IMG/VR virus record: IMGVR_UViG_3300027782_000032
Location: 1 to 64,000 of that record
Length of the DNA stretch: 64,000 bases
Origin: a virus
Reading direction: 5' to 3' (one strand)
This document shows positions 23,715 to 64,000 of the stretch, in pieces. Position 1 is the first letter of the stretch. Each line of letters begins with the position of its first letter. The translations under genes were made by a program, and so were the position numbers. The notes beneath the pieces were generated by a model. The model was not told where the DNA came from. It searched no databases and saw nothing but the letters and a program-made list of their open reading frames with translations.

Positions 23715-24179
23715 CTAGCCTCCAGTGGATGCGCTTAGTTTAATTAGCCTCTCTATGTAACCTTTTACACCGTAAGGAGTAAGAAGTGGGCCGTTACCAC
23801 TACCTTGTCCTTTTCTTCTACCAGATGCAAAGGCTTCTGCTCTAGCTAGCGAGCAGTGCCTTAGCCTAAATGCCCTCTCCATAGCTTGGAGGTACGCAGC
23901 TTGAAGCTTTATAACTTTAGCGTCTCCGTCAGTACCAGGGGAGCCTGGAGAGTACACTGATTGGTACTGACTGTCTAATATCCTTCTTGAGAAAGTTTCT
24001 CTTACAGAAACATGGTCACATGGGTTCTTGTTCTCATGGTTAGCTAGCTCCCATACCCTTGCTCCACCATTAAGCATGGAGTTAGCAATGACCTCAGACT
24101 GTTCAGCCATCTTTTCAATATTCTTTCTAAAGTTAGTGTCTGGTGACGAAACTTTAGATGACCCATGATATCCACTCAT
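23715..24179 (-). CDS. Hypothetical protein in baseplate module
   Basis: 154 aa; ATGA overlap with the sigma gene stop. Confidence 0.55.
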   Translation of the reverse strand: MSGYHGSSKVSSPDTNFRKNIEKMAEQSEVIANSMLNGGARVWELANHENKNPCDHVSVRETFSRRILDSQYQSVYSPGSPGTDGDAKVIKLQAAYLQAMERAFRLRHCSLARAEAFASGRRKGQGSGNGPLLTPYGVKGYIERLIKLSASTGG

Positions 24180-25003
24180 AAAAGACCCATCCTTTCTCGG
24201 CCGTCCATCTTGTTCTGGATGTCAGACCTTATTTGACTAACCCTAGCTGGGGTTATTCTAAGTTTCTTTGCAATGCCTATGTTATCCAATTTTGACTTTC
24301 CATTCATTCCAAATGTGTGTTCCATTATTAATTTAGCTCTGTCATCAAGTCCGTCGTACACAAACCCTCTCCAAGCTTGACCCTGCTGCTGCCCTGGAAT
24401 TGATGAAGATGGATCGGACACGTCGTCTGACTCTGAGCCCATAAACCCTTGTGAAGCCGCTCCTTCAGACAAACCAGGCTTGTACCCTCTAACCCTTTCG
24501 ATTCTTTTATTTGATAGCCCTGTGTAGTTAGCTAGCTCGTCATCATTAGGGTCTCTACCCAGCTGATCTTCCAGCTCTTTAAATGACGCATTTACGTAGT
24601 GGCTGTCTATTCTTACCCTTTCAGGGACGTTTAATATCTGACTGGACTTAGCTGCTGCTCTCTTCAATCCCTGCATGTGCCACATCATGTGAGTTTTAAG
24701 TTTTGACTTAGAAGGGTCATAACCTTTAAGACCGTCTAAAGCCATCCTTCTTGCTTGAAGTCTTACACTTGGAGAAGCTTCTTGTCCAGCGTAAGACTTT
24801 ACAGCTGAATCTATAATAGGGTTTATCTTTCCTATAATCATGTCATTTTGTTCAGGAGTTTGATTCTGCTTCCAAGAGTCGTAGGCTTCTTGATACTCAG
24901 GCTCTAAGTTTGAAGTAGGCGCGGCTGGTTTTCCTGGCTTAGCTTTATCCTTATCTAGAGAGAATAGGCTAGGTACTTTGTCAAAAGGTTTCTTTTCGTT
25001 CAT
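24176..25003 (-). CDS. Sigma-70 family RNA polymerase sigma factor (regions 2, 3, 4; FliA/SigF-like size)
   Basis: Region 2 YDPSKSKLKTHMMW; region 3 LGRDPNDDELA; region 4 HTH LDDRAKLIMEHTFG...IAKKLRITPARVSQI. Confidence 0.88.
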   Translation of the reverse strand: MNEKKPFDKVPSLFSLDKDKAKPGKPAAPTSNLEPEYQEAYDSWKQNQTPEQNDMIIGKINPIIDSAVKSYAGQEASPSVRLQARRMALDGLKGYDPSKSKLKTHMMWHMQGLKRAAAKSSQILNVPERVRIDSHYVNASFKELEDQLGRDPNDDELANYTGLSNKRIERVRGYKPGLSEGAASQGFMGSESDDVSDPSSSIPGQQQGQAWRGFVYDGLDDRAKLIMEHTFGMNGKSKLDNIGIAKKLRITPARVSQIRSDIQNKMDGRERMGLL

Positions 25004-25028
25004 GTTGTCTCCTGTTTAGTAATACTGA

Positions 25029-27419: not shown

Positions 27420-27441
27420 AACAATCTTATGTCCTTTAACT

Positions 27442-27958: not shown

Positions 27959-30900
27959 CTACTGTTTAGAAGAGTTTAGTAACCCACTTATCATTCCTTT
28001 AAATATGTCCATCTTGCCTGAGAACACAAGCGGCTGCTTAGAGTCAATAACAGCTACCATTTTTCCAGACTGAAAACTAGGGTCTCCTTCCTTACCTTGT
28101 AACATATTTTCTTTCTTTATTTTAGCGTCAGTAGCTCTTACCTTGGCGTTAACTTCTTTGGTTACCAGCTCTCCACCTTCACTTATCATATTAGCTTCAA
28201 CATAACCCTGAGCCGCAACGCCAGACTTAAGAGCCAACTGCTGCTTATTAAGGTTGGCATCAGGAGTAGAAAGCAGCTTTCTTAGCTCTTTTAGCCTTTC
28301 TTGAGGGCTAGCGTTAGTATTAGTCTTACCACTAAGATCGAACGCCTCCCTAGCTGCATATGACAGGCTAGAGCTTACTCTATTGAAGGCCTCCCTTTGA
28401 TCTCCAGTGGAGACGTCTCCAAATGATTTGCCTTCAAACTTCTTACCGTAAAAAGCCTCCTTAGAAACGTTAAACTCTTCTTGGAAGAATTGCATAGGGC
28501 TTTTTGCTTTGCCAACATCCTGTATCATTATGGCTTTAGCCTTATCGATGTTTTCTCTTTGTTTATCACTAAGCTTTGGACCCTCTCCTGAATAGTTTTG
28601 TACGCTTAAGTCTGTAAGTAAAGATGTTAGGTGATCAGTCTCGGCTGTACTAAGCTTAGCGTAGCTGTCCTTTCCTAAGACTGCAGCTTTAGCTGATGCA
28701 TTAAACCCAGCCATCTTTTCTAAAGCAGCCTCCTTATCTTTATCTAATATCTTGCCTTTATTGATGTATTCTTTAATTTTAGCTTGAACTTTTGGATCTT
28801 TAAGTTGCTTACGCCTCTCGTCTTCAGTTCTTAGAATAATTGGAAGAGATTTAAAATCCTCTGGACTTAATCCTGACTTTTCTTGAAGCGCTTTATACCT
28901 TGCTGTTTCTTCATCAGTAAGTCCTGCCCCTCCTTCGCTCTTAGCCGTTATAGCTTCAAATTCAGCTATATCAGCTTCACTTTTAAACCTACCTTTAAGT
29001 AGAAGTTCTCTAGATTTTTTCTTATCTACAAGCTCTTGGTGTCTAGCTTTATCTTTGTCAGTAAATTCTTTGTTCTTAAACTCGTCAAACTGGCCTGGTT
29101 TAATATCCTCTTTTTTATAACCTATTCTTAAGTTATCGATGTATTTTCTGTGTCTACTGCCACCTTCCTCGTACTGCTTAAGATTTATAAAGTTGCCTGA
29201 TTCTACTTCAGCATCAGTAGCTCTTACGGCTTTTCCGTCCTTAATTACAAAAGACTCACCATATTTAATGCCAGCCTGTTCAGCTTTGTTAACGTTGTAT
29301 AGCTGAGCTAGGTCAGCTTTCTGTTGGTCTTTGTTTTTAGATGTGTATCCAGAAAGCTTAAGTATGTTTCTTATATCTTCAGACTTCTGAGAGTCATCAT
29401 TAGAAAACATTTGTAGCTCTTGAACTGAGCTATACTTGTTTAAAAGTTGACTTACAGCGTTTTTGTTCTCAGCATCGAACTCTCTTCCAAACTCTTTAGT
29501 TAGCTCAACTACCTTAGAGCTAGCAGATTCTCTTTTTTTATCTTCTAGCTTTTTTAGCTCATCTTTATCTCTTTCATTAAACGTACTAGTGGCTTCTTTA
29601 ATGCTATTATCAAGATCGTAACTTTGTTTCTTTTTACGCTCGTCATCACTCATTGGGCTTGTTCTTGCTACCAGCCTTAAAGCCTCATCTCTATCGGAAC
29701 CTGTTAGGGTCTTAAACTTAGATTCTTGAGCTCCAGAGTCTTTTATAACCTTAGATATTTCTTCTTTTATTTTGTCTCTTTCTTTAGGAGATTTTTCGTT
29801 CGATAGCGCTGCTCTTAGTCTAAGTACCTTGCTACGTTCCTCATCTGTAGGTTCAACTGCAGCAGCCAAGCTGTCTTTCTTTATGTTAAGTTTGTCTAGG
29901 CCTGTTGCTTCAATATACTTATCTATGGCTGTGTCGTTGCTTTTCTTAGCAGCCTCTGCTTCAGTAAAGCTCTTGTAAGCTGCTTTTATTGCTTTCTCAG
30001 ATCCTTCGGTAAGGCTTTCTGAAAGCTTAGTGGCCTTATCTTTAGCAGCGCCAAGGTTCTCTGATTTAATGTCTAATAGTCCTTGAAGCCTCTCAGCCTT
30101 TCTTAAATCTTTAGGGTCCTTAGACTCACTAAGAGTTTTTACTTGGGCAGTTAGATTTGCTCTAGCCGTTAAAGCCATTCCAGGAACTGTAGATGACAGT
30201 TCTGTCAAAACGTTTATATCGTCTTTATTTTCAGCTTGAAGGTCTTTAAAGTTAAAGTTGACCCTAGACAGGTCTTTATTCATGTACTCCTCTCTAGTCA
30301 CACCAAGCTCGTTGCTTGAATTAGAAATACGGTTTAGAGCTATAGCCGCCTTATCTCTTATTTCTAATCCCTTCTTGCCTCCTTTCTCTAACAGTCCTCC
30401 TTCATTAGTTGTGTATCTGTCTAGGAAGTTTCTAGCCATGTCTAAGCCATAAGCTGCTTCTCCAGGATCAGCATTATTTATTTGTTTATTTATGTCATTA
30501 ACTTCTTTAAGACCTCCAGTAGCGTTGCTCATGAATCCAGCAGCAGTGAATTCTATTCCAGCCTTTTCAAGTATAGTCTTAAGCTCAGCCTGCTTTGTAC
30601 CTTTGCCTATTAGGGCTAGTTCTCTAGTGCTCTTTGTCTTAGCTTCATCAGCAGTAACTCCATGCCTATCTTTAAAGCTATTAATGTTTGATCTAGCAGT
30701 GGCTTCATAGTCTTTTGAATTCTTTTTAGCTTCGTTAACTATAGAAGCGTAGGTTGAGTCAACTCCGCCTGTGGTTGCTAAATCTGACTTTATAAGTTGA
30801 TCTTTAAGCTGATTCCTTTCTCCTTCAAGCTGTCTTCGTTTGTCTTCGGTTATTCCTGGCTTGGCCAACTCAGCGTCATTAAGGGCTATAGCGTTGTTTA

Positions 30901-33151
30901 AGTAGTCGTGCTTAACTTTGTCAGCGTCGTACTCGTTGTAAGCTGTTGACGCCTCTTTAATCTCACGGAACAAAGGTGCAAATCTTTCTTGTACCTTATC
31001 TTTTGGTACAAAGTTAAGTACAGCTGCTGCAGCATCTGAAGCGCTAGTTTTACTGTTTGCGTTCCTTACAAAGTCAGTAAGTCTTTGTGTAAGGTCGGTC
31101 TTACCAACATCTGCAAGCATAGACTCAAACCCACTCTGCTGCTGAACTTCAGCGCTGCTTATCCTAGCTTCCTCTAACACCCTAGTGCTTAGAGTAGCCT
31201 GAGCATCAGGAAGTGATTGGTAACCTGAGGACTTAGCCCACTGAAGTGATGAGTCGGCTATACCGCCTGCTGCTGATGCTAGGAATCTTTCGTCTGATGG
31301 TTTATCAAACTTGAATCCCCTCTTTCTAAGACTACTTTCAAGAGATTTCCTAATTGTTACTTCAGGCTTACCTATCTCATCTTTAGGAGCGTTAATTAAC
31401 GCTTCTGCAGCTTCTTTGTTAATTTCGTTAGCTGTAGCTTGGTCTGTGAAAGCTGACTTTACGTCTTTGCTAACACCTTCCATAGCCTTATCGTCTTTTG
31501 AATACCTAGCAAAGTTCATGCTGTTTCTATCGGATAACTCTGTAATAGCTCCAGCATTCTGCATAGGCCTTCCTACGTTTGATCCCATGTTGTACTTAAA
31601 CATGTACTCTTCGTTAGCTTCTTGAGTTGCTTGTAAGTCTTGAACTAAAGATACAGGCATACCGCTTTTTAAAAGGAATTCACTTACTCCTCCTGGCTGC
31701 CTAGACAATTCGCTTAGGGTTTTCTTTATCTTGTTTCCCTTGGCATCTGTAGTTTCATAGACTCCACCAGACGACGGGTTTGTTATAGCTTTGTATACTG
31801 ATTCTAGTTCTGAGCCTTCGGTAGGCTTAAACTTATATCTATCAACTGCTCTAGCTATGTTAGCTATTTGATTTACCCTAGGGTCCTTTAAGGCTTGAGT
31901 GTTAAGCTGCTGTTGAATGTCCATAATTTTGTCAGAAGAGCTAAGACCAAAGGCTGTAACGCCTCCATACATACGCTTAGACGCGTCATTCTCTAGAACT
32001 GACTGGTTTGTAGTACCAGGCACGAATACTCTATTTACACCCATCCTGTCAGCCATTCCAGCAGAGGCTCCCATAAGCCTAAACATCTCTGGCATTTCTA
32101 TGCCGGCTGCCTTAGCTGTGTTAGAGGTATCTCTAACCATCTTTTCAAGTTTGTGAGGTTCCATTCCTTGCATGTTAGCTTGAGTTAAAGTTTCTATAGC
32201 TCCTACAAGCTGAGACATTGGAGCATTGCTTTCTCCCATCTCTCCAAACACTTCTTGCATAGCCGCAACAGCCTTTGACATACCTTTAAGTCTTCCAGCT
32301 ATTTTATCTGCATCAAACTGTCTTAACCTAGCGTCTAAGTCTGGCATGTTAGATACTTCACCTACTGTCTTGTCAAGCTGCTCAGCTATTTTACGAATAC
32401 CCTCTCCTCTGCCGCCGCTATTAGGCATAGCTCCTCTACGTTGAAGCTCGTCGTATAGTGCGCCTGTTTTACCTGCTGTAAGCCCATTCATCTGAGACAC
32501 TTCAGCTCTATCGCCGTACAACCTTTCGTACACATTCTTGCTCAGCTCTCCTACAGAGTTGGCGCTCATTCCTCGCCTTCCTGTAACTGGGTCGGTGGCG
32601 TACCTTGCACCCTTGAACATGTTCTGAGCCATAACAGTGGCAGAACCTCTAGTACCGTTAAGACTGTCTACAAAGTCAGGAGCAAACTGCGCAGCCATAG
32701 GCATAAAGCCGCTGATAGTCTCAGCCAGCTGGTTGGCTGACTCACGCTCACGGGCTCCAAACCTTTGTCCTGTAAGCGCTGCTGTTCCTTGGATCATTTT
32801 AAAGATGGAGCCTTTGTCTACCTGAGACGCGTTGCCCATAGCTATGGACTGTCCCCTTAAAGCATCACCCATTCTCATTTGGCTATATAGATTACCTCCA
32901 GCCGAGAACTGAGCAGGCATGTATTTGTTGCCTATAAAGCTGGTTAGTAATGGCTGCATTATGGTATTGAGCATAAGGCTCATACCTGGGTCTTGTGTTC
33001 CTATTAAGCTTGCTATGTTAAAAGAGTCACCTATAGCTCCTAGTTTTCTTCCTTGGGCTATAGGAGGCTGCGCTATATTCTGAGCAAACGTATTAGGTAC
33101 AGGTGCGAACTCAGCGTACTGAGAAGCGTAGTTAGGTGTGTTGTAGGCCAA
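27959..33151 (-). CDS. Tail tape measure protein
   Basis: 1730 aa, Ala/Lys/Glu-rich and helical, no Cys; lies between the chaperone-like pair and the baseplate genes. Confidence 0.8.
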   Translation of the reverse strand: MAYNTPNYASQYAEFAPVPNTFAQNIAQPPIAQGRKLGAIGDSFNIASLIGTQDPGMSLMLNTIMQPLLTSFIGNKYMPAQFSAGGNLYSQMRMGDALRGQSIAMGNASQVDKGSIFKMIQGTAALTGQRFGARERESANQLAETISGFMPMAAQFAPDFVDSLNGTRGSATVMAQNMFKGARYATDPVTGRRGMSANSVGELSKNVYERLYGDRAEVSQMNGLTAGKTGALYDELQRRGAMPNSGGRGEGIRKIAEQLDKTVGEVSNMPDLDARLRQFDADKIAGRLKGMSKAVAAMQEVFGEMGESNAPMSQLVGAIETLTQANMQGMEPHKLEKMVRDTSNTAKAAGIEMPEMFRLMGASAGMADRMGVNRVFVPGTTNQSVLENDASKRMYGGVTAFGLSSSDKIMDIQQQLNTQALKDPRVNQIANIARAVDRYKFKPTEGSELESVYKAITNPSSGGVYETTDAKGNKIKKTLSELSRQPGGVSEFLLKSGMPVSLVQDLQATQEANEEYMFKYNMGSNVGRPMQNAGAITELSDRNSMNFARYSKDDKAMEGVSKDVKSAFTDQATANEINKEAAEALINAPKDEIGKPEVTIRKSLESSLRKRGFKFDKPSDERFLASAAGGIADSSLQWAKSSGYQSLPDAQATLSTRVLEEARISSAEVQQQSGFESMLADVGKTDLTQRLTDFVRNANSKTSASDAAAAVLNFVPKDKVQERFAPLFREIKEASTAYNEYDADKVKHDYLNNAIALNDAELAKPGITEDKRRQLEGERNQLKDQLIKSDLATTGGVDSTYASIVNEAKKNSKDYEATARSNINSFKDRHGVTADEAKTKSTRELALIGKGTKQAELKTILEKAGIEFTAAGFMSNATGGLKEVNDINKQINNADPGEAAYGLDMARNFLDRYTTNEGGLLEKGGKKGLEIRDKAAIALNRISNSSNELGVTREEYMNKDLSRVNFNFKDLQAENKDDINVLTELSSTVPGMALTARANLTAQVKTLSESKDPKDLRKAERLQGLLDIKSENLGAAKDKATKLSESLTEGSEKAIKAAYKSFTEAEAAKKSNDTAIDKYIEATGLDKLNIKKDSLAAAVEPTDEERSKVLRLRAALSNEKSPKERDKIKEEISKVIKDSGAQESKFKTLTGSDRDEALRLVARTSPMSDDERKKKQSYDLDNSIKEATSTFNERDKDELKKLEDKKRESASSKVVELTKEFGREFDAENKNAVSQLLNKYSSVQELQMFSNDDSQKSEDIRNILKLSGYTSKNKDQQKADLAQLYNVNKAEQAGIKYGESFVIKDGKAVRATDAEVESGNFINLKQYEEGGSRHRKYIDNLRIGYKKEDIKPGQFDEFKNKEFTDKDKARHQELVDKKKSRELLLKGRFKSEADIAEFEAITAKSEGGAGLTDEETARYKALQEKSGLSPEDFKSLPIILRTEDERRKQLKDPKVQAKIKEYINKGKILDKDKEAALEKMAGFNASAKAAVLGKDSYAKLSTAETDHLTSLLTDLSVQNYSGEGPKLSDKQRENIDKAKAIMIQDVGKAKSPMQFFQEEFNVSKEAFYGKKFEGKSFGDVSTGDQREAFNRVSSSLSYAAREAFDLSGKTNTNASPQERLKELRKLLSTPDANLNKQQLALKSGVAAQGYVEANMISEGGELVTKEVNAKVRATDAKIKKENMLQGKEGDPSFQSGKMVAVIDSKQPLVFSGKMDIFKGMISGLLNSSKQ
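28407..28421. repeat. Dispersed palindrome copy 3
   Basis: GTGGAGACGTCTCCA inside the tape measure gene (GDVST). Confidence 0.95.
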
Positions 33152-52013: not shown

Positions 52014-52056
52014 TACTGTCTCCTAGTTAACTATGGATTAATTCAGAGCGTTGCTC

Positions 52057-53457
52057 CTACTCCTTATCTTCTTTAGGGCCTTTAAATCCCTTTCGTTCAT
52101 CTATGCTGCTGTTTATTGATTTAATTCTACTGTTAGACGGAGAGTCTTTTCCAAAGGCGTTGTCTGCTCTGTAAGACTGTGTCTCTCCTCTTGTGTTTTC
52201 CATATCTAACATTTGCTGAACGTCAGAAGGATCAATAGCAGAGGTTCCACCTACCAAACGCTTTCTAAGAAGAGGTCGCATAATAGCAGTGTTTGTGGTG
52301 GTGTCTGGAGCTATGCTGCTAATTTCATTAAAGTGGAATGCCACGTCTTCAGGGTGGTACCCGCCTATGATTTCGTCGTTAGCCATTAAGTCAGATATAG
52401 CTGCGCTAGCTCTAATGTTCTTTAGAGTCATATCTTGAGCTATCTGATCGTTTCTAAATTTGTATTCGTTTGAATCTCTAGAAACTGTCTTGTCTTTAGG
52501 CTCGCTTTGGACAAAGTTGTAAGCGCTATTAAACATACCCTTATTCTTGTCCCACAGCTTACCAGCAGACTTATTCAAACCGTCTAAGACTGAACCTGTG
52601 TTAGAACCAGGAAGGTCTTCAGAGAAAGCAGCTGACAGGGCAGACCCGATAACCTTTTTAAGGTGATCAACTGCTGCCTTCTTATTCAAGTGAACTTCAG
52701 CGTGCTTAATGCAATCTTTTATAAGACTGTAAGGAGCTTGTGAAAGCTCAACTGGAGCCATAATGTCTGACAGTGTGCCAGCTTGTTTACGAAACGCTTT
52801 GTTTGAAATAGCAAGTATGTTGAGAAGTGACTCTGCCTTCTTTCCAAACAACCTAACGCTGTTTTCTTTGGCGACGCTAAATGGAACGCCTCCAAAAGTT
52901 CTAAAGTAAGTAGCAATCTTGGTGATGCCGTCCATCATCATATCTTTGCTATGAGCAGAATCCATTCTAAGCTTTTCAGAGTCTCTACCCATTTTTTCAA
53001 TAAGTGAGCTGATTACTCTGGTTTTTCCAAGGCTGTCTTGAGCTAATGTAGCATACTTGCCTTGGTCTGAAGCTAACTTACCAAGAGGCTTAAGTTCAAA
53101 CTTAGGTTGAACAGGTGGCCTTTTGTAAGCGTCGGATATTGCGCCTTCCTTGATCATAGAAGCGGCGGTCTTAACAGAGTCTGGATAAACCAAACCTATT
53201 ACCGTTTTCAAGTCTGCCAGATCGAACTCTGCCAGCTTTTCAAGAGGGTCTGATCCTGCTTGGCGGTGTGCCTCACTCCTTCCAGTATTGAATGCCCTTA
53301 CCATAAGCTCTAAGTGACCTACGGGTACACCGTAGGCTGAGGCTGTTTTGGCAATGGCTTCATTAGGCGAAGAGCCTGAGTTTACAAGCTCAGCTGCCTC
53401 GCTTAAGGAGTCGGTTATTCTACTTTCAGATTCTTTACTGAGCCCTTGTGTCGCCAT
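52057..53457 (-). CDS. K-x-A-rich hypothetical virion head protein
   Basis: 466 aa; VKTAA, GKLAS, RKQAG, NKKAA, NKSAG. Confidence 0.55.
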   Translation of the reverse strand: MATQGLSKESESRITDSLSEAAELVNSGSSPNEAIAKTASAYGVPVGHLELMVRAFNTGRSEAHRQAGSDPLEKLAEFDLADLKTVIGLVYPDSVKTAASMIKEGAISDAYKRPPVQPKFELKPLGKLASDQGKYATLAQDSLGKTRVISSLIEKMGRDSEKLRMDSAHSKDMMMDGITKIATYFRTFGGVPFSVAKENSVRLFGKKAESLLNILAISNKAFRKQAGTLSDIMAPVELSQAPYSLIKDCIKHAEVHLNKKAAVDHLKKVIGSALSAAFSEDLPGSNTGSVLDGLNKSAGKLWDKNKGMFNSAYNFVQSEPKDKTVSRDSNEYKFRNDQIAQDMTLKNIRASAAISDLMANDEIIGGYHPEDVAFHFNEISSIAPDTTTNTAIMRPLLRKRLVGGTSAIDPSDVQQMLDMENTRGETQSYRADNAFGKDSPSNSRIKSINSSIDERKGFKGPKEDKE

Positions 53458-54824: not shown

Positions 54825-57230
54825 TTACACGTTGTTGTCGTCTAGGCTGATGCCTTCGTCAGGGTACGAGTCAATAGTCTTCTGCTTGAGGAACAATAAC
54901 AAGTCTCCGAGCTGTTCAAAAGAGTTCCTAAGATTGTCTTCAAGCTCAGGAATGTCTTTCTTACCATATCGGTCTTCGAACTTGTCTTTGTGCCAATAGA
55001 AACTAAAGAGAATACGTCCAATCTTGTCTAGCCCGCCCATAAGGTCACCCAAGTGGCGATCTACCATTGTGTCATCGCGAACAGACTTGATTAAGGTACC
55101 GATCATAGAAGTATCAAACACTTCTTTCTGACCAGACTGAGCAGCGTTGTAGCCGATAGCCATAGTATTTGGATCAGGAAGCCTTGGGTCATATACGGCT
55201 GAGTTAGCCTGAAGAGACTGGCTGTTCATCGCAGGCAGAGACTGTTGCTGAGGGTATGACGACTGCACACTTCCTAACAACGTAGACTCCATACCTGTTG
55301 GAGGAGTAGGAAAAGCAGGAGCAGAGGTAGTGCCCTGCATTGATTGGTCTATTTGGTCGCCTGGAGCTGCTGACTTTATTAAGTCGCCTGCATCCTCTTT
55401 GACCGGCTTGTGTACTCTATAGTTAGCAACTTTGTTTTGCTTAGCTTCTTCCAAAATACATCGAGCTTGCTTCTCACGCAGAGCAACGTCTCGTACTAGA
55501 TGGATAAGCGCTTCCTTGGGTTCTAGAACTCTACCATTAACAGATACCTCAGAGCCAGTGTGCCTGACGTTTAAAGAGGCTGTCTTTTGATAGATAGCGT
55601 GCTGAAGGTCAGTAAGATTTCCAGGGACGATAGAGCCGTCACCTGTGCAACAATCACCTGACAACTTTATCATTTTAAAATTACCAGGAATATAAAGGTC
55701 TCCCTTAATAGCTTTGATACGGGAGCCTGGTTTATCAGTTACGTACAGCTTACGTCCGCCGCCTATTACATTGTTACTGTAACCATGGTCGTCACAACCA
55801 TCGCTTACTTTAGATTTTGGAAGATAGGACGGCTTCTGCTGTGAAGCAGAGTCGTGATAAAGTACTCTGTAGTTCTTAGTGCCGTCAGACGCACTGTCTG
55901 TCTTAAGTACTTCAAAGGGAACGCTAGCGTCTCCACTTTCGCTGACTGCCATGTAAATACCGCCCTTTGTTAACGAGGACGATTCTGGAAGCTTCTCAAA
56001 AAACTTAGCATAGCTGTCACCGCTAGTTTTGCTTTCTGGTGAGTCTTGTCCGCCATCTCTTGGTGGTCTGGTAAACAGATTACCTGGATGGCTGTTGATC
56101 CAACTTTTTTCTCCCTCGTAGTTAACTACTGTGGCGAAGTCTTGCCTTCCAGAAGGTCCGTGAGGCATTAGGAAGATTACAGTCTTTAACATTGAGAAAG
56201 GAGAAACAAGAAGGTCGTAAACTCCAGTAGTTGGAGGATTTTCTATTGAGGTTGGCTCTTGAATTCTGTAAGCGATAGATGCTTCATCTTTGGTTCTAGC
56301 ATCCCTAAAGATAACTCCATCAGTAAGAAGCTTTTTCTTATCTGGTTCTGAAGAATCCATAATGTCTTCTGAGCCGTTAGATGAAGAATTAAAGCTTCTT
56401 ACAATAATAGTAAGAGCCTGCTTCTCTTGATGTCTTAGCTGTACGGTGTCTTCAGCGAGAACGCCTGGCTCTGTTAACGTGCCAAGCTTGGCAACTGCAT
56501 CTTTAAGAAAGTCATTACCGCATGTACTATCAATAGCTTCTGCCATCTTAGGAAACCGTTGACAGATATCGATAATGCCTTTTACAAGCTCTCGGTAAGC
56601 ACTTTTACTATGAGAAGCTTCTTTATTTAGAAATGATTTTAGAGTAATTGTCTTAGCGAACTTAGGATCGTGCACAGGGTTAGAGCAAGCGAACTTAGCG
56701 AAAGCTCTTACACCTTCCATCATCTCATCAGAGTCATCAGCAGGCTTGTTAGCCGAAGCGAACTTAGCTGGAGGTCTGCTAAACGCTTGAAGGTCAGGAG
56801 TAAGGAAGCCAAGACGGCCCATGTTCTGGTCGGTCTTCTTGCCAAGGCTGGCTGGCTTACGGCGTAGAATGTAGTTAAGCCAGTTTTCTTTAAGAGGTAC
56901 GAATTGATCTTGGTCTTTAAGATAAAGCAGCTCATGACCCTTAAGGTCGCCATTAATAAAGAACACTGGCGCATACAGCCACTGGCTGCCAACTTTAAAA
57001 CCAAACAGACCAACTGCTTTGGTGTTGTCTTCGTTGCGCTCCATAAGCTCAAAGCCTACTTCGTAGTCTAGAAGTCCTGGGGCTTTGTCTTTTAAATAAG
57101 CGTGTGCAAGATTGCTGAAAGCCTGTTCAAACTGAGTATCATTGCCTTCGCCTCCAAGTTCAGCTTGCTTAACAAGCCCTTTAACTAAAGAAGGTAACTC
57201 AAGTAAAAACGACTTATTGTTATTGCTCAT
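54825..57230 (-). CDS. Large K-x-A-containing hypothetical virion protein (start revised to ATG 57230)
   Basis: ~800 aa; GGAAGG RBS before MSNNNKS; VKQAE, AKFAS, NKEAS, EKQAL, QKTAS, IKSAA. Confidence 0.6.
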   Translation of the reverse strand: MSNNNKSFLLELPSLVKGLVKQAELGGEGNDTQFEQAFSNLAHAYLKDKAPGLLDYEVGFELMERNEDNTKAVGLFGFKVGSQWLYAPVFFINGDLKGHELLYLKDQDQFVPLKENWLNYILRRKPASLGKKTDQNMGRLGFLTPDLQAFSRPPAKFASANKPADDSDEMMEGVRAFAKFACSNPVHDPKFAKTITLKSFLNKEASHSKSAYRELVKGIIDICQRFPKMAEAIDSTCGNDFLKDAVAKLGTLTEPGVLAEDTVQLRHQEKQALTIIVRSFNSSSNGSEDIMDSSEPDKKKLLTDGVIFRDARTKDEASIAYRIQEPTSIENPPTTGVYDLLVSPFSMLKTVIFLMPHGPSGRQDFATVVNYEGEKSWINSHPGNLFTRPPRDGGQDSPESKTSGDSYAKFFEKLPESSSLTKGGIYMAVSESGDASVPFEVLKTDSASDGTKNYRVLYHDSASQQKPSYLPKSKVSDGCDDHGYSNNVIGGGRKLYVTDKPGSRIKAIKGDLYIPGNFKMIKLSGDCCTGDGSIVPGNLTDLQHAIYQKTASLNVRHTGSEVSVNGRVLEPKEALIHLVRDVALREKQARCILEEAKQNKVANYRVHKPVKEDAGDLIKSAAPGDQIDQSMQGTTSAPAFPTPPTGMESTLLGSVQSSYPQQQSLPAMNSQSLQANSAVYDPRLPDPNTMAIGYNAAQSGQKEVFDTSMIGTLIKSVRDDTMVDRHLGDLMGGLDKIGRILFSFYWHKDKFEDRYGKKDIPELEDNLRNSFEQLGDLLLFLKQKTIDSYPDEGISLDDNNV

Positions 57231-57334
57231 ATTTCTTAACCTTCCATGGCTTAGAAAGTAACACAGAGCCATTATGCTCTTTATTGGTTCACTCTGCAAC
57301 AATTACAGGTGATTATTATCAATAATGCTCTTAA

Positions 57335-57691
57335 TTATCTAGGCCGCATACTGAGAATATTTTCAGTTAAGCTTCCGCTCTTCATAAGCTCAAGCATGAC
57401 CTCTGCCATCTTAGCATAATTATTACCTTGGGTGTTAGTGGAGACGTCTCCACTACTTTGAGCCACTGCTGCTGCTTGATTTGACACAGGCGGCAGCATC
57501 GTAGAAGGGGCCATAAGAGCTGGCGAAGTGTTAACGTTCTTTACATCTTGAGGTGATGGTTTTTCTGATTTTGCTGCAGATAAAGATGGTGAAGCCCCTG
57601 CAGAAGGAATGGTGGGAGCAGTCAATGGCTTTAAAGCTGAAGGCTTACTAGGCTGACCCATGTTAGCCCACTTGTGTATAAAGTCGCTCAT
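57335..57691 (-). CDS. Low-complexity K-x-A protein
   Basis: 118 aa, Pro/Ser/Ala-rich; its start overlaps the beta-prime stop (TAATG). Confidence 0.55.
   Translation of the reverse strand: MSDFIHKWANMGQPSKPSALKPLTAPTIPSAGASPSLSAAKSEKPSPQDVKNVNTSPALMAPSTMLPPVSNQAAAVAQSSGDVSTNTQGNNYAKMAEVMLELMKSGSLTENILSMRPR
57436..57455. repeat. Dispersed palindrome copy 7 (20-bp perfect palindrome)
   Basis: TAGTGGAGACGTCTCCACTA. Confidence 0.95.
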
Positions 57692-59610
57692 TATAAAACT
57701 CCGTCATTTTCAATTGGTTTAAGTATTTCACTCTTAGGTTTTTCTACTTTAAATCCTTTTACTGGACCGCTCTTACCAAAGTCTACAGCCTTGGCTAATG
57801 ACGGCACATAGGACGTGCCCTTCTCGTCGCTTACCGCACCACGATGCACGGCATTTAAAGTTGACTTTCTAAGATTGCTTCCAAGCATTCTAGTCATCCA
57901 GTCTGGGTCATGCTGAAGGTTTTCCAAACCCCTAACGAAGTGAGCTTCAAACGGAGCAGGGTCTTTGTGAACAGTAATCTTAGAGACACCAAACTCATTT
58001 AAGTCTTTTATCATAGAAGGCTTGATAGGAGTCCCTATACTGTAGTGCAGCACGGGCTGCTCAAGGTATTTACCAATAGCTTCTCTTGGATTTACTATGG
58101 TATGTCCTTCTCTAGGTTCCCAATCGTGTTCTACCGAGTCATAAGGTACGACGTCGTCTGGAGCGTACTGCTTGTACTCATCGCTCATCTTGACGTGATT
58201 GATAAGGCCTTTCGACATGACTTCTATGTTGCGTCTGTTTCCAGACATGCCTGCGCCTTTCATGGCTCCTTTAAAGGCTTGTACAAACTGACGCCTACCT
58301 TCACCTATTCCTTTGAACCTAGTAAGCATAGCAGGGTTGGCAATACCGTCAGACAATGTGTCCCCAGCCTCTACTACATCGTTAAGCTTCACAGACAAGT
58401 TTACTCCAGGGTTTACGTGGTGCTCAACTCCGTCTATCGCTATGAATGTGCCACCTGTAGGAGCTTCTTTAATTCCAGTAACCTTACCATCACGCTGAGC
58501 ATGAGCTGCCCAGTAAGGAGACTGCTTAGGTGATTGAACAAGCTGGTTTAAGTGTTTAAAGCCTGAGACTGCCCCAGCTGCTCCAGCTACTCCACCTGTG
58601 TGCTTAGAGCTTAGCTGACCTTGAGAAATAGGCTCGGATAGAGCTTGCATAGCGGCAATACCTATGGCGTCGCCTATTGGAGCAAAGCTGCCTCTTTCCC
58701 TTATGCCTAAATCTCTAGAGTATAGCCCTCCGTCAGGAGCTCCAGTTGCTATAGGGCTTCTTACTAAGAGCCTTTTTACGTTGTTAGCCTTTAAGTCTTT
58801 TATAACTCTAGGTGTAAGCACGGTGTTTCTAGCATAGCCCCCAGCTGCCATAGCTAGAAGCGCGCCTTCGTTATCATCATCCTCTATGTCTACAGGAAGT
58901 CCACGGCTTTCAAACCGTTTAGGATCGTCAGCGTCGTCACCTACGACAACCATTCTATGACCTATCTGATTTAGCTGTTTTGAAAAGAATCCAGCGTCCA
59001 TTGTTGCGAACTTAGTATCAGCAACTCCTTTACGGGCACCGAATGCTCCAGCAAAGTACTCAGCAGGATTTAAGCCTTTAGAGTATGAGTTGAACACAGG
59101 AATGGGAATAGCATTATCGTGATGATCGGTGTAGAGTAGATCTCCACCTCTAAGGCTTTTAAGGTTCATCGGCTTACCACGCGACCCTGACTGAATCTGT
59201 CTAGCTAGCTGGTTACCTTCTCGTAGTGAGTCATCAAATATGCCTTTTTCCATACCGCTTTGAGCATTGTTAAGCAGCTCAATCATACTACTATTTTTAG
59301 TGTCTTCATCTATTCTAGAGTTTCTCATTATTCCATCTATAGCTAGCTTTAGCTTAGCCTTAGCGTCTATAGAGTGATTAGACTCCCTTAGGTCTTTTAG
59401 TCCGAATGAAAATCCTCCACTGTTATAAGACACATCTCTACCGATATCAAAAAGCTTCTTTGATATGTCTTTGTACTTCTCTGGATGATTTTGAGCTATG
59501 ATCTGCATAAGCGAAGCAGAAGCTTTTGAATCTAAAGATCTGGTGTAATCTCTTAGCTCTGCAGGAAGGGCGTCGTTAACCATGATCTGACCTATGGTGG
59601 TCTTAAGCAT
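57691..59610 (-). CDS. rpoC: RNA polymerase beta-prime, C-terminal piece (bridge helix, trigger loop, clamp end)
   Basis: KTTIG; GSRGKPMNL; NSYSKGLNPAEYFAGAFGARKGVADTKFATMDAGFFSKQL (bridge helix); GDAIGIAAMQALSEPISQGQLSSKHTGG (trigger loop). Confidence 0.93.
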   Translation of the reverse strand: MLKTTIGQIMVNDALPAELRDYTRSLDSKASASLMQIIAQNHPEKYKDISKKLFDIGRDVSYNSGGFSFGLKDLRESNHSIDAKAKLKLAIDGIMRNSRIDEDTKNSSMIELLNNAQSGMEKGIFDDSLREGNQLARQIQSGSRGKPMNLKSLRGGDLLYTDHHDNAIPIPVFNSYSKGLNPAEYFAGAFGARKGVADTKFATMDAGFFSKQLNQIGHRMVVVGDDADDPKRFESRGLPVDIEDDDNEGALLAMAAGGYARNTVLTPRVIKDLKANNVKRLLVRSPIATGAPDGGLYSRDLGIRERGSFAPIGDAIGIAAMQALSEPISQGQLSSKHTGGVAGAAGAVSGFKHLNQLVQSPKQSPYWAAHAQRDGKVTGIKEAPTGGTFIAIDGVEHHVNPGVNLSVKLNDVVEAGDTLSDGIANPAMLTRFKGIGEGRRQFVQAFKGAMKGAGMSGNRRNIEVMSKGLINHVKMSDEYKQYAPDDVVPYDSVEHDWEPREGHTIVNPREAIGKYLEQPVLHYSIGTPIKPSMIKDLNEFGVSKITVHKDPAPFEAHFVRGLENLQHDPDWMTRMLGSNLRKSTLNAVHRGAVSDEKGTSYVPSLAKAVDFGKSGPVKGFKVEKPKSEILKPIENDGVL

Positions 59611-59612
59611 GA

Positions 59613-59831: not shown

Positions 59832-59835
59832 GATA

Positions 59836-60492
59836 CTAGTCTTTCTTAAGTCTTAGTAAATGAAGAATGCCTGCTGCCTTTTCACTTACGCTGAAGTTGT
59901 CAGCCGCTGTCTTCATAGGCTGAGCTCCTTGACTTGGAGCACCGCTTGGACCTTGCTGTTGTCCGTCAGAGCCCTGCTGCCCCTTAGGGTCATCAAGAAT
60001 ATCATGAGGCAAGTTAAGCCCTAAGGATGAGTAAAGATGAGTCATGAGCTTTTGAATGCGGTGCATGTACACCTCAGTCTGAGCTCCGTCATTCTTCTTT
60101 GCAGCTCCCTTACCGCCGCCTTTAGCCTCAGCCATAGCTCGCTGCATTTCGTCTTTTACAACTGACCTGATTTGTTCTGTAGGATCAGGAGGAGCACCGC
60201 CCATAGAAGGGTCCATAGGAGGGGCACCACCAGCAGCGGCTGGGTCCATAGGAGGAGCACCACCAGCCATAGCAGGATCCATTGGAGGGGCACCACCGGC
60301 CATAGCTGGGTCCATAGGAGGAGCACCGCCAGCCATAGCAGGATCCATTGGAGGAGCTCCTTGTGGAGGAGCGCCGCCCATAGAAGGATCCATTGGAGGA
60401 GCGCCTGGAGGAGCCCCTGCTTGTTCTGGAGGCATGAATGCCTGCTTGACTCTAAGCTGTGCCTGCTTCAAAAGATACTTATTGATAGCCAT
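59836..60492 (-). CDS. Pro/Gly/Met-rich repeat protein with K-x-A motifs
   Basis: 218 aa; six APPMDP units with an 11-aa period; LKQAQ, VKQAF, MKTAA. Confidence 0.65.
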   Translation of the reverse strand: MAINKYLLKQAQLRVKQAFMPPEQAGAPPGAPPMDPSMGGAPPQGAPPMDPAMAGGAPPMDPAMAGGAPPMDPAMAGGAPPMDPAAAGGAPPMDPSMGGAPPDPTEQIRSVVKDEMQRAMAEAKGGGKGAAKKNDGAQTEVYMHRIQKLMTHLYSSLGLNLPHDILDDPKGQQGSDGQQQGPSGAPSQGAQPMKTAADNFSVSEKAAGILHLLRLKKD

Positions 60493-60512
60493 GTTGATTA
60501 CCTTATTTATTA

Positions 60513-61061
60513 TTATCGAGGTTCTGCGTCTAACGCTGGCATGTTGACCTGCTTATTTTGCAAGTTATACTTTTCGTATGGGTCTAAGTAGCTGTGGGCT
60601 AGGTTTACTGGAGGAGCAATGTAATCTGAAGCATTATTAACATTACCTGACAAGTACATATCTCGGTCAGCACCTGTACGGCCCATGCCAAGTCTAATTG
60701 CGGCTTCATTAATACCGGCGCCGCCTAAGGCACCGACACCGCCACCAGCAAGAGCACCGCGGCCAAGTCGGCCAAGAATGCCTACGCCTTTCTTTCGTTT
60801 ACCAAAAAGAGCGTTGCCTATGCCGCCAACGCCAGCGCCTACGCCACCACCCAAGATAGCTGCTTGAGCTGTTGGATCAAGCCCTTTGTAATAATCTAAA
60901 GCGTTGTTACCAAGACCTTTTAACCCTGACATTGCGCTGTCACCAAGGCCTTTAAGGCTGTCCATCATGCCTTCGCCAATTGCTTGTTTTACAAGCATGC
61001 CGTTTTTACGACCTAGATAAGCAGCAAGTTTAGTTGATCGTTCGATTCTAGCGAAGTCCAT
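60513..61061 (-). CDS. K-x-A / glycine-zipper protein
   Basis: TKLAA and VKQAI, then GGGVGAGVGGIG and GALAGGGVGALGGAG; no Cys. Confidence 0.55.
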   Translation of the reverse strand: MDFARIERSTKLAAYLGRKNGMLVKQAIGEGMMDSLKGLGDSAMSGLKGLGNNALDYYKGLDPTAQAAILGGGVGAGVGGIGNALFGKRKKGVGILGRLGRGALAGGGVGALGGAGINEAAIRLGMGRTGADRDMYLSGNVNNASDYIAPPVNLAHSYLDPYEKYNLQNKQVNMPALDAEPR

Positions 61062-61141
61062 TTCACAATCTCCATGTGGTATATAGTAAAGCCGTTAGAC
61101 AAGTTTAACCTACGATTAATAGCTATTGCTATAGCAAATAG

Positions 61142-61780
61142 CTATCCTACCAGTAAAGGCGCAGCTCTCCTAAGCAATTCAGGTCTTAGAAGGCCGTAGT
61201 CTTTTAGTACTTTAGATGTAGCCAGTAAGTCTTTGTTATGGTTACCAGCACTGTAAAGACCCAGCGCTCCACCCATAGCTGCAGGAGCCAAAGTAGCTGC
61301 TATAGATGTTGACAGAGGCTGCCCTGTTAACCTACTAGCAAGAAGACCTCCAAGGCCACCTAAGCCTGCGTATCCAGCGGCTCTAAGTGTAGGATTAGCT
61401 CTGTGCTTTGAGAAGTCGTACTTTTCAGAAGGGTCATCTTGAAGACGTCCTAGCATTCCACTTAGAGCAGGTCTGCTTATACCGTAGTTGTCCAAGTCTT
61501 CGTCAGTTGGATTAACCATGTTTCTAGCTTGGTCCATCATTGACATTGCTTCTGGCATTCTGTCAGGACCTGGCCTCATCCTTGTAGCAAGCTGCATGTT
61601 ACGAGCTGACTTCTCGGATGTTAGCTTATCCCAGTTTTTCTTGTCTGGGTAAGCTTCACTGCCTGGCTTGGCTGGAGGTGCTCCCCTTTTCTTTTTTGCT
61701 TGAACGTTAGCCCACAAGCCTGGGTTGCTCTCTGATGCAGCTGATTTAAAAAACAAATTATGCAGTCCTTGCAAGCTCAT
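61142..61780 (-). CDS. K-x-A / glycine-zipper protein with GLWANVQAKKKRG module (start revised to ATG 61780)
   Basis: GGAG RBS before MSLQG; FKSAA, EKSAR; GYAGLGGLGG and AAMGGALG; no Cys. Confidence 0.55.
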   Translation of the reverse strand: MSLQGLHNLFFKSAASESNPGLWANVQAKKKRGAPPAKPGSEAYPDKKNWDKLTSEKSARNMQLATRMRPGPDRMPEAMSMMDQARNMVNPTDEDLDNYGISRPALSGMLGRLQDDPSEKYDFSKHRANPTLRAAGYAGLGGLGGLLASRLTGQPLSTSIAATLAPAAMGGALGLYSAGNHNKDLLATSKVLKDYGLLRPELLRRAAPLLVG

Positions 61781-61805
61781 AGTAGTCTCCAAAGTTTAAT
61801 AACCC

Positions 61806-61897
61806 AGCTGAAAAGACTTCGTCGCTCTGACGCACTTCCGCTTCGAGCGTCGATTAGTCCCAGGAGAGTGCTAAAACAGGCCCTAGCCTTTCCAGCT
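61806..61897 (-). ncRNA. Candidate structured RNA (three-way junction) in intergenic leader
   Basis: 12-bp closing helix AGCUGGAAAGGC/GUCUUUUCAGCU enclosing CUAGGG/UCCUGG and GACGC/GCGUC stems. Confidence 0.35.
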
Positions 61898-61911
61898 AAG
61901 TACATATAATA

Positions 61912-63405
61912 TTACTCTTTACTTCCAATTTGTTTAAGTACATTTAGGAATTTTTCATTAAGTTTCTGCTTACGATTGGCAGCGTTGATCAAGTAGTCAT
62001 CTGTTGCAGGGATAGGGTCTGCACCTATACCTATATGACGCAGCAAAGATCTTAGTCTTCCTGGAGCAGTCCTAGCTATGTAACGTTCTATTGAAACTTT
62101 TCTGTCTTCTGGATCAAGATGGTCATGGCTGTCAAACCTAAGAGCTCGGCCTTCGCTCTGGCTGCTTCTAGCTGTATTCCAGTGAGGGTCAAGCAGTTGA
62201 ACTAGCTTGGTACCTTTAAACGACAAACCTTCTGTTCCTGCTGGACCTAGCAAAGCTACCTTAAGCTTATCGCTGTTGTAGTCGTCAACCAGTCTTTTAC
62301 GCTCTTTATCTGATAGTGCACCTGTAAACGAAGCTGCAGGAATACCTGCTCTGTCTAAAGCGGCTTGGTAAGGCGACAACCCTGCATCGATAAAGTTGGA
62401 GAAGATAAGAGCTTTGCCTTTAGGGTCTTTGTCTAAAAGCCCCTTAAGATTACCAAACGCTGTAGTAAGCTTTGGAGAATCATCGAAAGCTTTTTGAATG
62501 TCTTTGTTTTCTTTCATGAACGGAAGTGTTGAAAGCCCTACCTGCCTAAGCCCTGTCATAAAGCTAGACATTCTGCTTACTTCATCTTTTGTTAGAGGGT
62601 AGTTCCTCTCTAGCTTCCACCTAAGTACAGTAGGAAGCTGACCCATTATATGGCTGTTAAGGTCTGTCTGATCTCGGTTCATTTCTACGACTACGTCTTT
62701 GCGATTAACTTCAGCCTTGGGAGCTAGCGGTGCAAAGTAGTCTACCTTACCTTTTAGCTTGTCTTTAAGTTGCTGCTGATTAATTATCTCTGGCTCTGCT
62801 GGATCTGAGTTTAGAAGTCTGTTGTACCAAGTAGGACTGGCTGTGTCTTTTACATAAGTGTCTTCAAACTCATTCTTACTAACGTCCTCTCCTGTAAGTA
62901 TGTTATACGGCAATGTAAAGTCGCTAGGGTCATTTACCACTGGAGTGCCGGTAAGCATCACAACCTGTTTTGCTTTTCTAGCAGCCTCCATAAGGTTCTT
63001 AGCTTGAGCGGACGCTGGGTTTCTAAATCTGTGAGCTTCGTCTATTAGAATAGAGCCTGGGTTATCTATTGGTTTTCCAAGTGCTAGGCCGGTATGACTC
63101 ATGACGCTGCTAGGTGTTGCAGTGTCTTGGTCTATAAACTTCTCTTGCTCCTTGCGTAAGTTGTTACGTAAGGCAGCAGGAACTACAGCTGTGTAAGGTA
63201 TCTTTGACTCGTCTGCTGAAGCTAATCCGCTTAAAGTCTTACCAGAGCCAAGACTATGGTAAAGCAGCATGCGAGCTTTACCAGTTGTGTCTAGCTGTTT
63301 CTGTACCTTGTCCACTACTCCCTGCTGGTGTGGCTGCAGAGAGATATTAGGATTTAGATCGGCTTGTTTTGTGGAGACGTCTCCACTGTTGTACTCTTGG
63401 GTCAC
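61912..63405 (-). CDS. SF2 SNF2-like helicase/translocase
   Basis: LQPHQ; LYHSLGSGKT (I); LIDEAHRFRN (II); LTGTP (III); AGTEGLSFK...LLDPHWN...QSEGRALRFDSH (V/VI). Confidence 0.92.
   Translation of the reverse strand: MTQEYNSGDVSTKQADLNPNISLQPHQQGVVDKVQKQLDTTGKARMLLYHSLGSGKTLSGLASADESKIPYTAVVPAALRNNLRKEQEKFIDQDTATPSSVMSHTGLALGKPIDNPGSILIDEAHRFRNPASAQAKNLMEAARKAKQVVMLTGTPVVNDPSDFTLPYNILTGEDVSKNEFEDTYVKDTASPTWYNRLLNSDPAEPEIINQQQLKDKLKGKVDYFAPLAPKAEVNRKDVVVEMNRDQTDLNSHIMGQLPTVLRWKLERNYPLTKDEVSRMSSFMTGLRQVGLSTLPFMKENKDIQKAFDDSPKLTTAFGNLKGLLDKDPKGKALIFSNFIDAGLSPYQAALDRAGIPAASFTGALSDKERKRLVDDYNSDKLKVALLGPAGTEGLSFKGTKLVQLLDPHWNTARSSQSEGRALRFDSHDHLDPEDRKVSIERYIARTAPGRLRSLLRHIGIGADPIPATDDYLINAANRKQKLNEKFLNVLKQIGSKE
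63371..63386. repeat. Dispersed palindrome copy 8
   Basis: GTGGAGACGTCTCCAC in helicase codons ~7-12. Confidence 0.95.
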
Positions 63406-63407
63406 GG

Positions 63408-64000
63408 CTACTCCACTATGACAACTTTGTCGTTGGCGTCTATCTCACCGGAACGGTATGCACGCATGGCATCAGCCTTAGTCTTGAAATAACGCTCAGG
63501 CCTCTTTGATGCTTCAGAGGTAGCTGTGTAAAGTCCGCCTTGATATTCATTCATCGGCAACTGGTGAACCTTGAAGTTCTTTACAGCAAATAGATTTCTA
63601 CTAGGAAGCATCTTCTCTATCGCATCCTTTACAGACTCATCAGTGGTTGGAACGTGATAGTTCATAGCGTCGCCATCGAAGTCGGCGCCAAACCCCTTTA
63701 CAATAATAGGAGGGACCTGAAGCGTACTACCCTTGACCAGCTTCGGCTTGAAAGCCATTACACCATATCGGTGAAGAACTGGGGCCCTAGTAATGATTAC
63801 TGGCCTTGCTTCCATCTCAGAAGTCATGGCATCCATAGCCATAGGGTCTTTCTTCTCTATCATTTCAGAGGCTTTAAATCTATCGACTCCTCTTTTTACA
63901 AGTCGTCGCATAATGAACGGCTTATAAACCGACCAAGCTCTGTCTTCAGGAAGACCTACTTGATCCATGTCCAAGTCTGGGTTAGGAGTAATAGCAGCTC
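63408..64000 (-). CDS. rpoC: RNA polymerase beta-prime, catalytic (DFDGD) piece; 5' part outside the window
   Basis: The frame is open to the edge (R AAITPNPDLDMDQVGLPEDRAW); PVIITRAPVLHRYG; GFGADFDGDAMNYHVP. Confidence 0.95.
   Translation of the reverse strand, partial: AAITPNPDLDMDQVGLPEDRAWSVYKPFIMRRLVKRGVDRFKASEMIEKKDPMAMDAMTSEMEARPVIITRAPVLHRYGVMAFKPKLVKGSTLQVPPIIVKGFGADFDGDAMNYHVPTTDESVKDAIEKMLPSRNLFAVKNFKVHQLPMNEYQGGLYTATSEASKRPERYFKTKADAMRAYRSGEIDANDKVVIVE

Follow-up and report, generated by a model that had tools for sequence, protein, structure and literature searches.

Jumbo phages related to phiKZ and to AR9/PBS2 encode a beta/beta-prime-type RNA polymerase (RNAP), with a split beta-prime, that travels in the virion and enters the host by injection to carry out early transcription; their RNAP genes are linked to an SNF2-type helicase, and a helicase is among the packaged phiKZ head proteins (PMC7824862, PMC13282480). 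These phages carry two RNAP sets, one virion and one non-virion, made of 4-5 very divergent chains, and no sigma-70 homologue. Phage N4 also packages and ejects a polymerase, gp50, but this is a single-subunit, T7-like enzyme of unrelated fold that uses hairpin promoters and no sigma; the original prediction cited it as free of cysteine (Cys), and our count gave 0 Cys in 3500 amino acids (aa), as well as 0 Cys in its neighbours gp51 and gp52. Reviews describe jumbo phages with an RNAP of their own as having two sets and lacking a sigma homologue, and those that encode a sigma as having no RNAP (PMC7598289, PMC7824862, PMC13282480). The phage described here belongs to a clade that encodes an RNAP and a sigma factor together, contrary to this pattern. 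The window analysed is positions 1 to 64,000 of IMG/VR record IMGVR_UViG_3300027782_000032, the first 64 kb of a single viral contig of 190,371 bp. It encodes parts of a closely bacterial-type RNAP, a sigma-70-family factor (sigma1) and an SNF2-type helicase, all without Cys. The original prediction, made from the window, was that the phage packages and injects these proteins together. Comparative and published evidence supports it, and we consider that a sigma-dependent holoenzyme is probably packaged and ejected; the orthologues of all four proteins have been detected in virions of the relative Salmonella phage Arash, and packaging is inferred here.

The contig has a CheckV completeness of 92% and a guanine + cytosine (GC) content of 42.6%; nearly all genes of the window lie on the - strand, and no tRNA gene was found. 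The contig was compared with the full sequences of four relatives (G001, G002, G004 and G005); together, these five genomes span 43-62% GC and share 51 orthologue groups. The coordinates of the genes are collected in Table 1. The four transcription open reading frames (ORFs) first reported are all present on the - strand, each with 0 Cys. One of them, however, a 188-aa ORF at the end of the window, is Cys-free but as a gene is a product of the window edge, the real frame being 1485 aa long. The window-internal part of this frame contains Rpb1 domain 2 (Pfam, 1e-20) and holds the catalytic GADFDGD of the double-psi barrel, which corresponds to residues 1393-1399 of the full protein and aligns with rpoC 458-464, so that the Mg-binding triad motif (NADFDGD in the bacterial enzyme) is kept. 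The full ORF carries Rpb2_3, Rpb2_6 (2e-49), Rpb1_1 and Rpb1_2 (3e-21), and it is therefore a beta subunit fused to the N-terminal half of beta-prime (hereafter the fusion). Its beta motifs NFED, GDKGV and LNPLG align to rpoB, and the catalytic motifs are intact. The other half of beta-prime (beta-prime-C; Rpb1_5, 2.5e-18) aligns to rpoC residues 636-939 and 1184-1261. The split point thus lies after the catalytic barrel, and the helicase gene and four small ORFs stand between the two RNAP genes.

Cys is missing even where bacterial beta-prime normally keeps it, as had been noticed in the window. Both zinc sites of Salmonella beta-prime (C70/72/85/88 and C814/888/895/898) are replaced or deleted in the phage alignment; the region of the site near the beta-prime N-terminus aligns poorly, yet without any Cys. 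Moreover, the bacterial QCGLP is QVGLP in the phage. Residues of the rifampicin pocket are also altered (D516 to E, H526 to Q and F514 to P in E. coli numbering), which may be taken as a weak pointer to drug insensitivity. The distant relatives have a longer beta-prime-C (G002 118812-122744, G004 88153-91335, G005 76486-80658), with 450-700 additional aa at the C-terminus that are absent here; this extension lacks Cys in G002 and G004, that of G005 has one (C726), and the called G005 ORF contains a further Cys (C34) in a leader upstream of the aligned start.

Pfam-based six-frame searches of the contig found one Rpb2_6, one Rpb1_5 and one Rpb1_2 locus, and every one of five relatives, including a genome that is 100% complete, gave a beta domain count of one. 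Neither the contig nor these five relatives yielded a second RNAP set, with or without Cys, and a T7-like RNAP was likewise not found in a search whose control was uninformative. Thus, a separate non-virion polymerase for later genes, expected of virion-packaged RNAPs of the phiKZ, AR9 and N4 kind, was not found here. A search for alpha gave no PF01000 match in the contig at E <= 10 with a control that matched in 14/14 genomes (omega was not searched for), and the phage polymerase could conceivably use the host alpha.

The fusion, beta-prime-C, the helicase and sigma1 together contain 0 Cys in about 2,900 residues; the beta part and the beta-prime N-terminus, which lie largely beyond the window, are therefore no exception. 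For comparison, Salmonella beta has 7 Cys and beta-prime 15. The block 57335-67865 has 1 Cys among its 3,427 aa, located in a 72-aa ORF. The Cys fraction is 1.35% genome-wide, 0.97% in the tail, baseplate and head genes, and 1.92% in the replication and early half (106.6-190 kb), so that non-virion genes have a normal Cys content; given the overall rate of the genome, a stretch of 3,470 aa would be free of Cys with a probability of about 4e-21. The contrast drawn earlier between internal and external virion proteins also held: the 1730-aa tape-measure-like protein and the Gly-rich, glycine-zipper proteins of the window have 0 Cys, whereas the fibre and baseplate ORFs are Cys-rich (1.6-3.2%).

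This avoidance of Cys is conserved in homologues. Among the best 120 of more than 1,850 relatives of the fusion (54-99% identity), 109 are intein-free and 11 are longer; 100 of the 109 have 0 Cys, with 10 Cys per 160,663 residues overall. Sigma1 has 0 Cys in 67 of 68 homologues (35-98% identity; 1 Cys per 17,327 residues), the helicase in 87 of 93 homologues of standard length (9 Cys per 45,883 residues), and beta-prime-C in 10 of 13 IMG/VR loci. Of the 51 orthologue groups shared by the five genomes, three alone have no or almost no Cys: sigma1, beta-prime-C and the fusion. The tape measure, which ranges from 1575 to 2024 aa, is Cys-free in 5/5 genomes, and the portal, terminase, baseplate and replication proteins retain conserved Cys throughout. 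Within the same gene run as the RNAP genes, the orthologues of 49796-51232 (10 Cys) and 54825-57302 (8 Cys) keep theirs. The loss of Cys is protein-specific across 43-62% GC, and it is therefore a property neither of the genome nor of virion proteins in general.

Inteins provide a control within the same genes. In the 11 intein-bearing fusion homologues, 88/88 Cys are inside inteins, which are 1-4% Cys, and the first extein residue (+1) after each intein is Ser or Thr, never Cys. The Cys-rich helicase homologues are intein-bearing as well, and helicases with inteins follow the same pattern; inteins are present in the helicase homologues P0247, P0282 and P0289. The gene can therefore carry Cys that the mature protein does not tolerate. 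The fusion inteins (P0020, P0024, P0034, P0035, P0038, P0039, P0044, P0053, P0100, P0118 and P0119, of which two have two inteins) are 346-409 aa long, have LAGLIDADG or Intein_splicing Pfam matches and occupy four insertion sites, after residues 431, 620, 805 and 845 of our fusion. In G005, the beta/beta-prime-N gene (66967-70113; 72027-73787) is divided at the position of our residue 950 by an apparent split intein. Its N-piece ends with the intein start CFLAGTH and about 98 aa, and its C-piece begins with about 41 aa ending in VLVSN, followed by Ser; the sole Cys of the beta piece is the first residue of this split intein, and a 637-aa Cys-free ORF lies between the two gene pieces.

Sigma1 is a member of the sigma-70 family with the sigma2-sigma3-sigma4 domain order. 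Pfam recognised Sigma70_r3 (26.9 bits, cut-off 25.3), with only 10 bits for r4 and no match for r2, but a profile of six sequences matched SigA, RpoD and RpoS chains of the PDB at 4e-11 from region 2 to region 4, and the top 50 Foldseek matches of its model (pLDDT 68.6) were all sigma-factor entries, over about 250 aligned columns. A complex prediction with fusion residues 1040-1485 gave an ipSAE of 0.71, against 0.00 for the best control, with sigma1 residues 49-89 facing fusion residues 1190-1238 (about rpoC 250-300, the clamp helices). The mark used was reached by 58/80 solved complexes and by 2/110 mismatched pairs, with runs sharing at least 40% of contacts and a partner pLDDT of at least 68. 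Sigma1 is thus predicted to dock on the phage's own beta-prime clamp helices, although this pass may reflect likeness to solved holoenzymes because sigma and clamp are a textbook pair. In the segment that should correspond to the region 2.3 aromatics that melt the -10 element (Y425/Y430/W433/W434 in E. coli), a by-eye comparison with the E. coli motif showed a single Trp (W109) here and in G001, and none in four more distant orthologues. The sigma1 gene lies 3-4 kb downstream of the tape-measure gene in 5/5 genomes and adjoins the equivalent gene in Arash. A second sigma-like gene (237 aa, Sigma70_r4 at 2e-14) lies in the contig outside the window and encodes 3 Cys; no orthologue of it was found in the four relatives at 1e-8, nor in the fetched parts of Arash at 1e-4. 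It is a candidate for an unpackaged factor used for later genes.

The helicase matches Helicase_C (8e-13, 49 bits, cut-off 23.5), SNF2-rel_dom (29.6 bits, cut-off 24.9) and ResIII (34.1 bits), and its best match among solved structures, over the C-terminal lobe, is NPH-I of vaccinia (6rfl_Y, 1.7e-9). Vaccinia packages a multisubunit RNAP with initiation factors and an SNF2 ATPase; this is an analogy only, as vaccinia is a eukaryotic virus without sigma, and the match to NPH-I may be general SNF2 similarity. The helicase ORF of G001 is 1162 aa long with 0 Cys. In G004, the C-terminal extension of the helicase has its Cys at 577-691 in a CxxxCxC...CxC cluster and thus departs from the Cys-free rule.

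Among cultured phages, Salmonella phage Arash (OQ632216) is the nearest relative; its virions were purified on sucrose gradients and analysed by liquid chromatography-mass spectrometry, giving a proteome of 116 of 272 proteins (PMC10585845). The original prediction had proposed virion mass spectrometry as a check, and in this cultured relative the orthologues of all four proteins are detected. The fusion orthologue gp206 is the most detected protein of the particle (128 unique peptides, 3516 spectra), alongside the orthologues of beta-prime-C, gp216 (40 unique peptides, 1210 spectra), of the helicase, gp217 (38 and 1148), and of sigma1, gp10 (24 and 467), compared with 32 unique peptides for the portal, 30 for the major capsid protein and 2 each for primase and ligase; a second Arash sigma, gp196, is absent from the virion table (PMC10585845). 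In one hedged sentence, the authors suggested early transcription and also allowed for carry-over (PMC10585845). Orthology is supported by 34% identity for the helicase with gp217 (E 3e-62) and 32% for sigma1 with gp10 (E 1e-16). The two phages have in common a beta fused to beta-prime-N, the separate beta-prime-C, the nearby SNF2 helicase, the sigma gene beside that of a large tail-internal protein, and proteins that are Cys-poor and, in Arash, all four found in virions. They differ in that the Arash helicase gene directly follows beta-prime-C and the portal gene precedes the fusion, while here the portal is 50 kb away, and in that Arash retains a few Cys (1 in gp206, 4 in gp216, 0 in gp217 and 0 in gp10). 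The Arash paper offers a proteome list without functional test.

Based on these data, the core, sigma1 and the SNF2 ATPase would probably be made alongside the structural proteins, packed, and ejected with the DNA, after which the holoenzyme would start phage transcription without host RNAP. The Cys-containing second sigma, made after entry, could then redirect the same sole polymerase to later genes. The loss of Cys and zinc sites would be an adaptation to extracellular storage and to unfolded passage through the tail and an oxidising envelope, which might keep refolding simple because no disulfide can form and no metal can be lost, and the beta/beta-prime tether may replace alpha-assisted assembly. 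The evidence points to a sigma that travels in the particle. A wider version of this scheme, in which a whole clade of abundant environmental phages of about 170-235 kb ejects, through the tail, a holoenzyme made of a two-chain core, sigma1 and the SNF2 ATPase and reuses its sole polymerase throughout infection, switched by an unpackaged sigma, is put forward more tentatively, and we would rate it at somewhat below even chances.

Several points weigh against packaging and ejection. For this phage itself, the argument for packaging comes from its genes and from orthology to Arash, which is distant (24-34% identity). Ribonucleotide reductase, ligase and primase are also in the Arash proteome (PMC10585845), and carry-over therefore occurs. 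As there is one RNAP set, the enzyme should be free in the cytoplasm late in infection, and contamination of particles becomes easier. The helicase gene of G004 (51353-53428) is 30 kb distant from the RNAP genes, and the C-terminal extension of its product contains 7 Cys. An 8-mer search of intergenic DNA gave no second, late motif, and no promoter class was tied to sigma1. Finally, gp80 of phiKZ, a subunit of the virion RNAP that is annotated as a structural head protein, contains 6 Cys among its 449 aa (the count covered 50-100 kb of phiKZ and, of the virion RNAP subunits, gp80), so that ejection does not require Cys loss. The idea that a packaged RNAP is Cys-free as a general law was rejected for this reason, and the avoidance of Cys is a suggestive, not an obligatory, mark of ejected proteins; four inner-body proteins of phiKZ were also counted, with 0 Cys in gp89 and gp90 and one each in gp93 and gp95.

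Some of these observations would suit an ordinary non-virion RNAP that is produced once infection has begun, from genes transcribed by the host, and that serves middle and late transcription; its detection in Arash would be carry-over of an abundant DNA-bound enzyme. With a single set per genome, the enzyme must act in the cytoplasm anyway, and clear non-structural enzymes are present in the Arash particles. Cys could then have been lost for robustness to oxidative stress, or purged once the zinc sites had gone. We regard this explanation as unlikely. Indeed, other cytoplasmic enzymes of the phage hold 1.9% Cys, the orthologues of terminase, ribonucleotide reductase and the proteins of the primase and polymerase regions keep conserved Cys, and, apart from the transcription proteins, the one large conserved protein without Cys is the tape measure, a member of a class that exits the virion by way of the tail. 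Carry-over also fits poorly with the Arash peptide counts, since the RNAP, helicase and sigma (24-128 unique peptides) resemble the portal and capsid proteins rather than primase and ligase, and the second sigma is unlisted. Another view would keep a packaged core but make sigma1 a late factor comparable to T4 gp55, expressed with the tail genes and guiding the phage or the host core. Its gene does lie in the tail-gene run, apart from the RNAP genes, and sigmas that work with the host core are common in phages lacking an RNAP of their own (PMC7598289, PMC7824862). The presence of gp10 in the Arash virion table, the extreme avoidance of Cys that sigma1 shares with the RNAP, when the other sigma of the genome has 3 Cys, and the predicted clamp-helix docking, possibly a memory of solved complexes, make this less likely still. 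That Cys is absent by chance or through genome composition is refuted by the probability given above, by the homologues, by the five-genome comparison with its range of GC contents and by the Cys content of the inteins in the same genes, and we give it practically no weight.

A packaged and ejected holoenzyme thus remains our preferred explanation, and its place among virion RNAPs would be distinct. In contrast to the phiKZ- and AR9/PBS2-like phages, this clade has one set of two chains, close to bacterial RNAP, and two sigma-70-family genes. What would be new within virion RNAPs is a single, two-chain, near-bacterial and sigma-dependent enzyme free of Cys and zinc, for which the published support is one proteome table. 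The original prediction did not recognise the combination as described; beta, beta-prime, sigma and helicase are already listed in the virion in the Arash paper (PMC10585845), and a search of the literature on Arash follow-up, on virions of the multimeric-RNAP-encoding Caudovirales (mReC) and on packaged sigma found nothing beyond it. The mReC of Weinheimer and Aylward (2020) are alike in being large uncultured tailed phages whose beta and beta-prime align readily to bacterial RNAP; that paper is a phylogeny only, which mentions neither sigma, virion nor packaged (PMC7481178). The more than 1,850 metagenomic relatives of the fusion are on contigs of about 200 kb.

If this is true, the phage would carry a minimal bacterial-type holoenzyme, with two chains, no alpha and no zinc, that survives unfolding and refolding. 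Strict avoidance of Cys might then serve as a simple sequence signature that predicts which proteins of uncultured phages are ejected, and inteins would supply the control within the same genes. The scheme also suggests how common environmental phages could evade the transcription control of the host, and it would be the counterpart, among bacterial viruses, of the virion transcription machine of poxviruses. The idea is directly testable in culture with Arash and with Vibrio phages D69, D181 and D148, which have unstudied homologues of gp206, gp216, gp217 and gp10.

Table 1. Features of the window and of the rest of the contig, with Arash orthologues
Feature	Position	Strand	Length (aa)	Cys	Arash orthologue	Remarks
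Beta + beta-prime-N fusion	63408-67865	-	1485	0	gp206	window part 63408..64000, C-terminal 196 codons
Beta-prime-C	57691..59610	-	639	0	gp216	
SNF2-type helicase/ATPase	61912..63405	-	497	0	gp217	
Sigma1, sigma-70-family	24176..25003	-	275	0	gp10	tail-gene run, 3 kb downstream of tape-measure gene
Second sigma-like gene	contig 157023-157736	-	237	3		outside window
Tape-measure-like protein	27959..33151	-	1730	0		
Three small Cys-free proteins	59836..61792	-		0		between helicase and beta-prime-C genes
Protein with GGAPPMDPAMAGG repeats	59836-60492	-	218	0		Cys-free likewise in three relatives
Two Gly-zipper, membrane-like proteins	60513-61061, 61142-61792	-		0		from sequence and composition
Ser/Ala/Pro-rich protein	57335..57691	-	118	0		directly downstream of beta-prime-C; G001 orthologue Cys-free
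Gene of the RNAP run	54825-57302			8	gp218	
Further Arash orthologue	21575-23209				gp13	
Promoter-like motif copies	~74553, 75238, 76302, 106716, 107246, 108225, 108708, 109371, 120528, 183465	-				all outside window

The RNAP genes are positioned in the head-gene run, among Gly-zipper proteins. PHROGs and Pfam searches with 20 structural ORFs of the neighbourhood and a further 8 Cys-free ORFs returned hardly any matches, apart from a weak major-head match at 46407-47336 and DUF5661 and AAA elsewhere; the head and tail assignments rest therefore mostly on Arash orthology and position. In the same way, the identity of the tape measure rests on size, composition and position because no Pfam family matched. 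The three small proteins between the helicase and beta-prime-C genes are, judged from their sequences, candidates for internal or ejection proteins. A wider set of Gly-zipper (GxxxG-rich), membrane-like proteins with 0-1 Cys (51288-52013, 60513-61061 and 61142-61792 in the window; 67867-68934, 69300-70187 and 70621-71940 in the contig) flanks and interrupts the RNAP genes. These are candidate ejection or channel proteins, and none of them matched a family; nor did the Ser/Ala/Pro-rich protein. The GGAPPMDPAMAGG repeat is common to the 59836-60492 protein and to the C-terminal part of 48395-49648 (- strand), an acidic, scaffold-like protein of 417 aa encoded upstream of the putative major head gene, and it may be a common targeting or processing motif.

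A giant ORF (1-7254, - strand) runs off the contig start, with more than 2418 aa and 38 Cys, and is probably a repetitive fibre gene. The first 4 kb of the window have a GC content of 49.6% and strong negative GC and AT (adenine/thymine) skew, unlike the remainder. Beyond the window, contig 80205-86932 encodes a series of proteins that are unrelated to one another and about 200-310 aa long; several of them have no Cys.

The 8-mer enrichment search of intergenic DNA identified one terminator tail and one conserved two-block motif, TTAATYCA-N12-GYGTCATAAT, with ten copies in the contig. These copies precede small genes, at whose ends a hairpin, a T-tract and AGCTATCA are found. The motif has three copies in G001 and none in G002, G004 and G005. 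The motif copies are good candidates for phage-sigma promoters, although host sigma-70 may read them instead. A palindrome, TGGAGACGTCTCCA, occurs in 23 copies in the contig, about every 8 kb and mostly within genes: seven are in the window (14863, 19056, 28408, 34176, 50125, 57439 and 63372) and 16 further in the contig. It is present 14 times in G001 and absent from the three distant relatives. In our contig, the copies at 106712, 107242 and 109367 directly abut the -35 block of the promoter-like motif.

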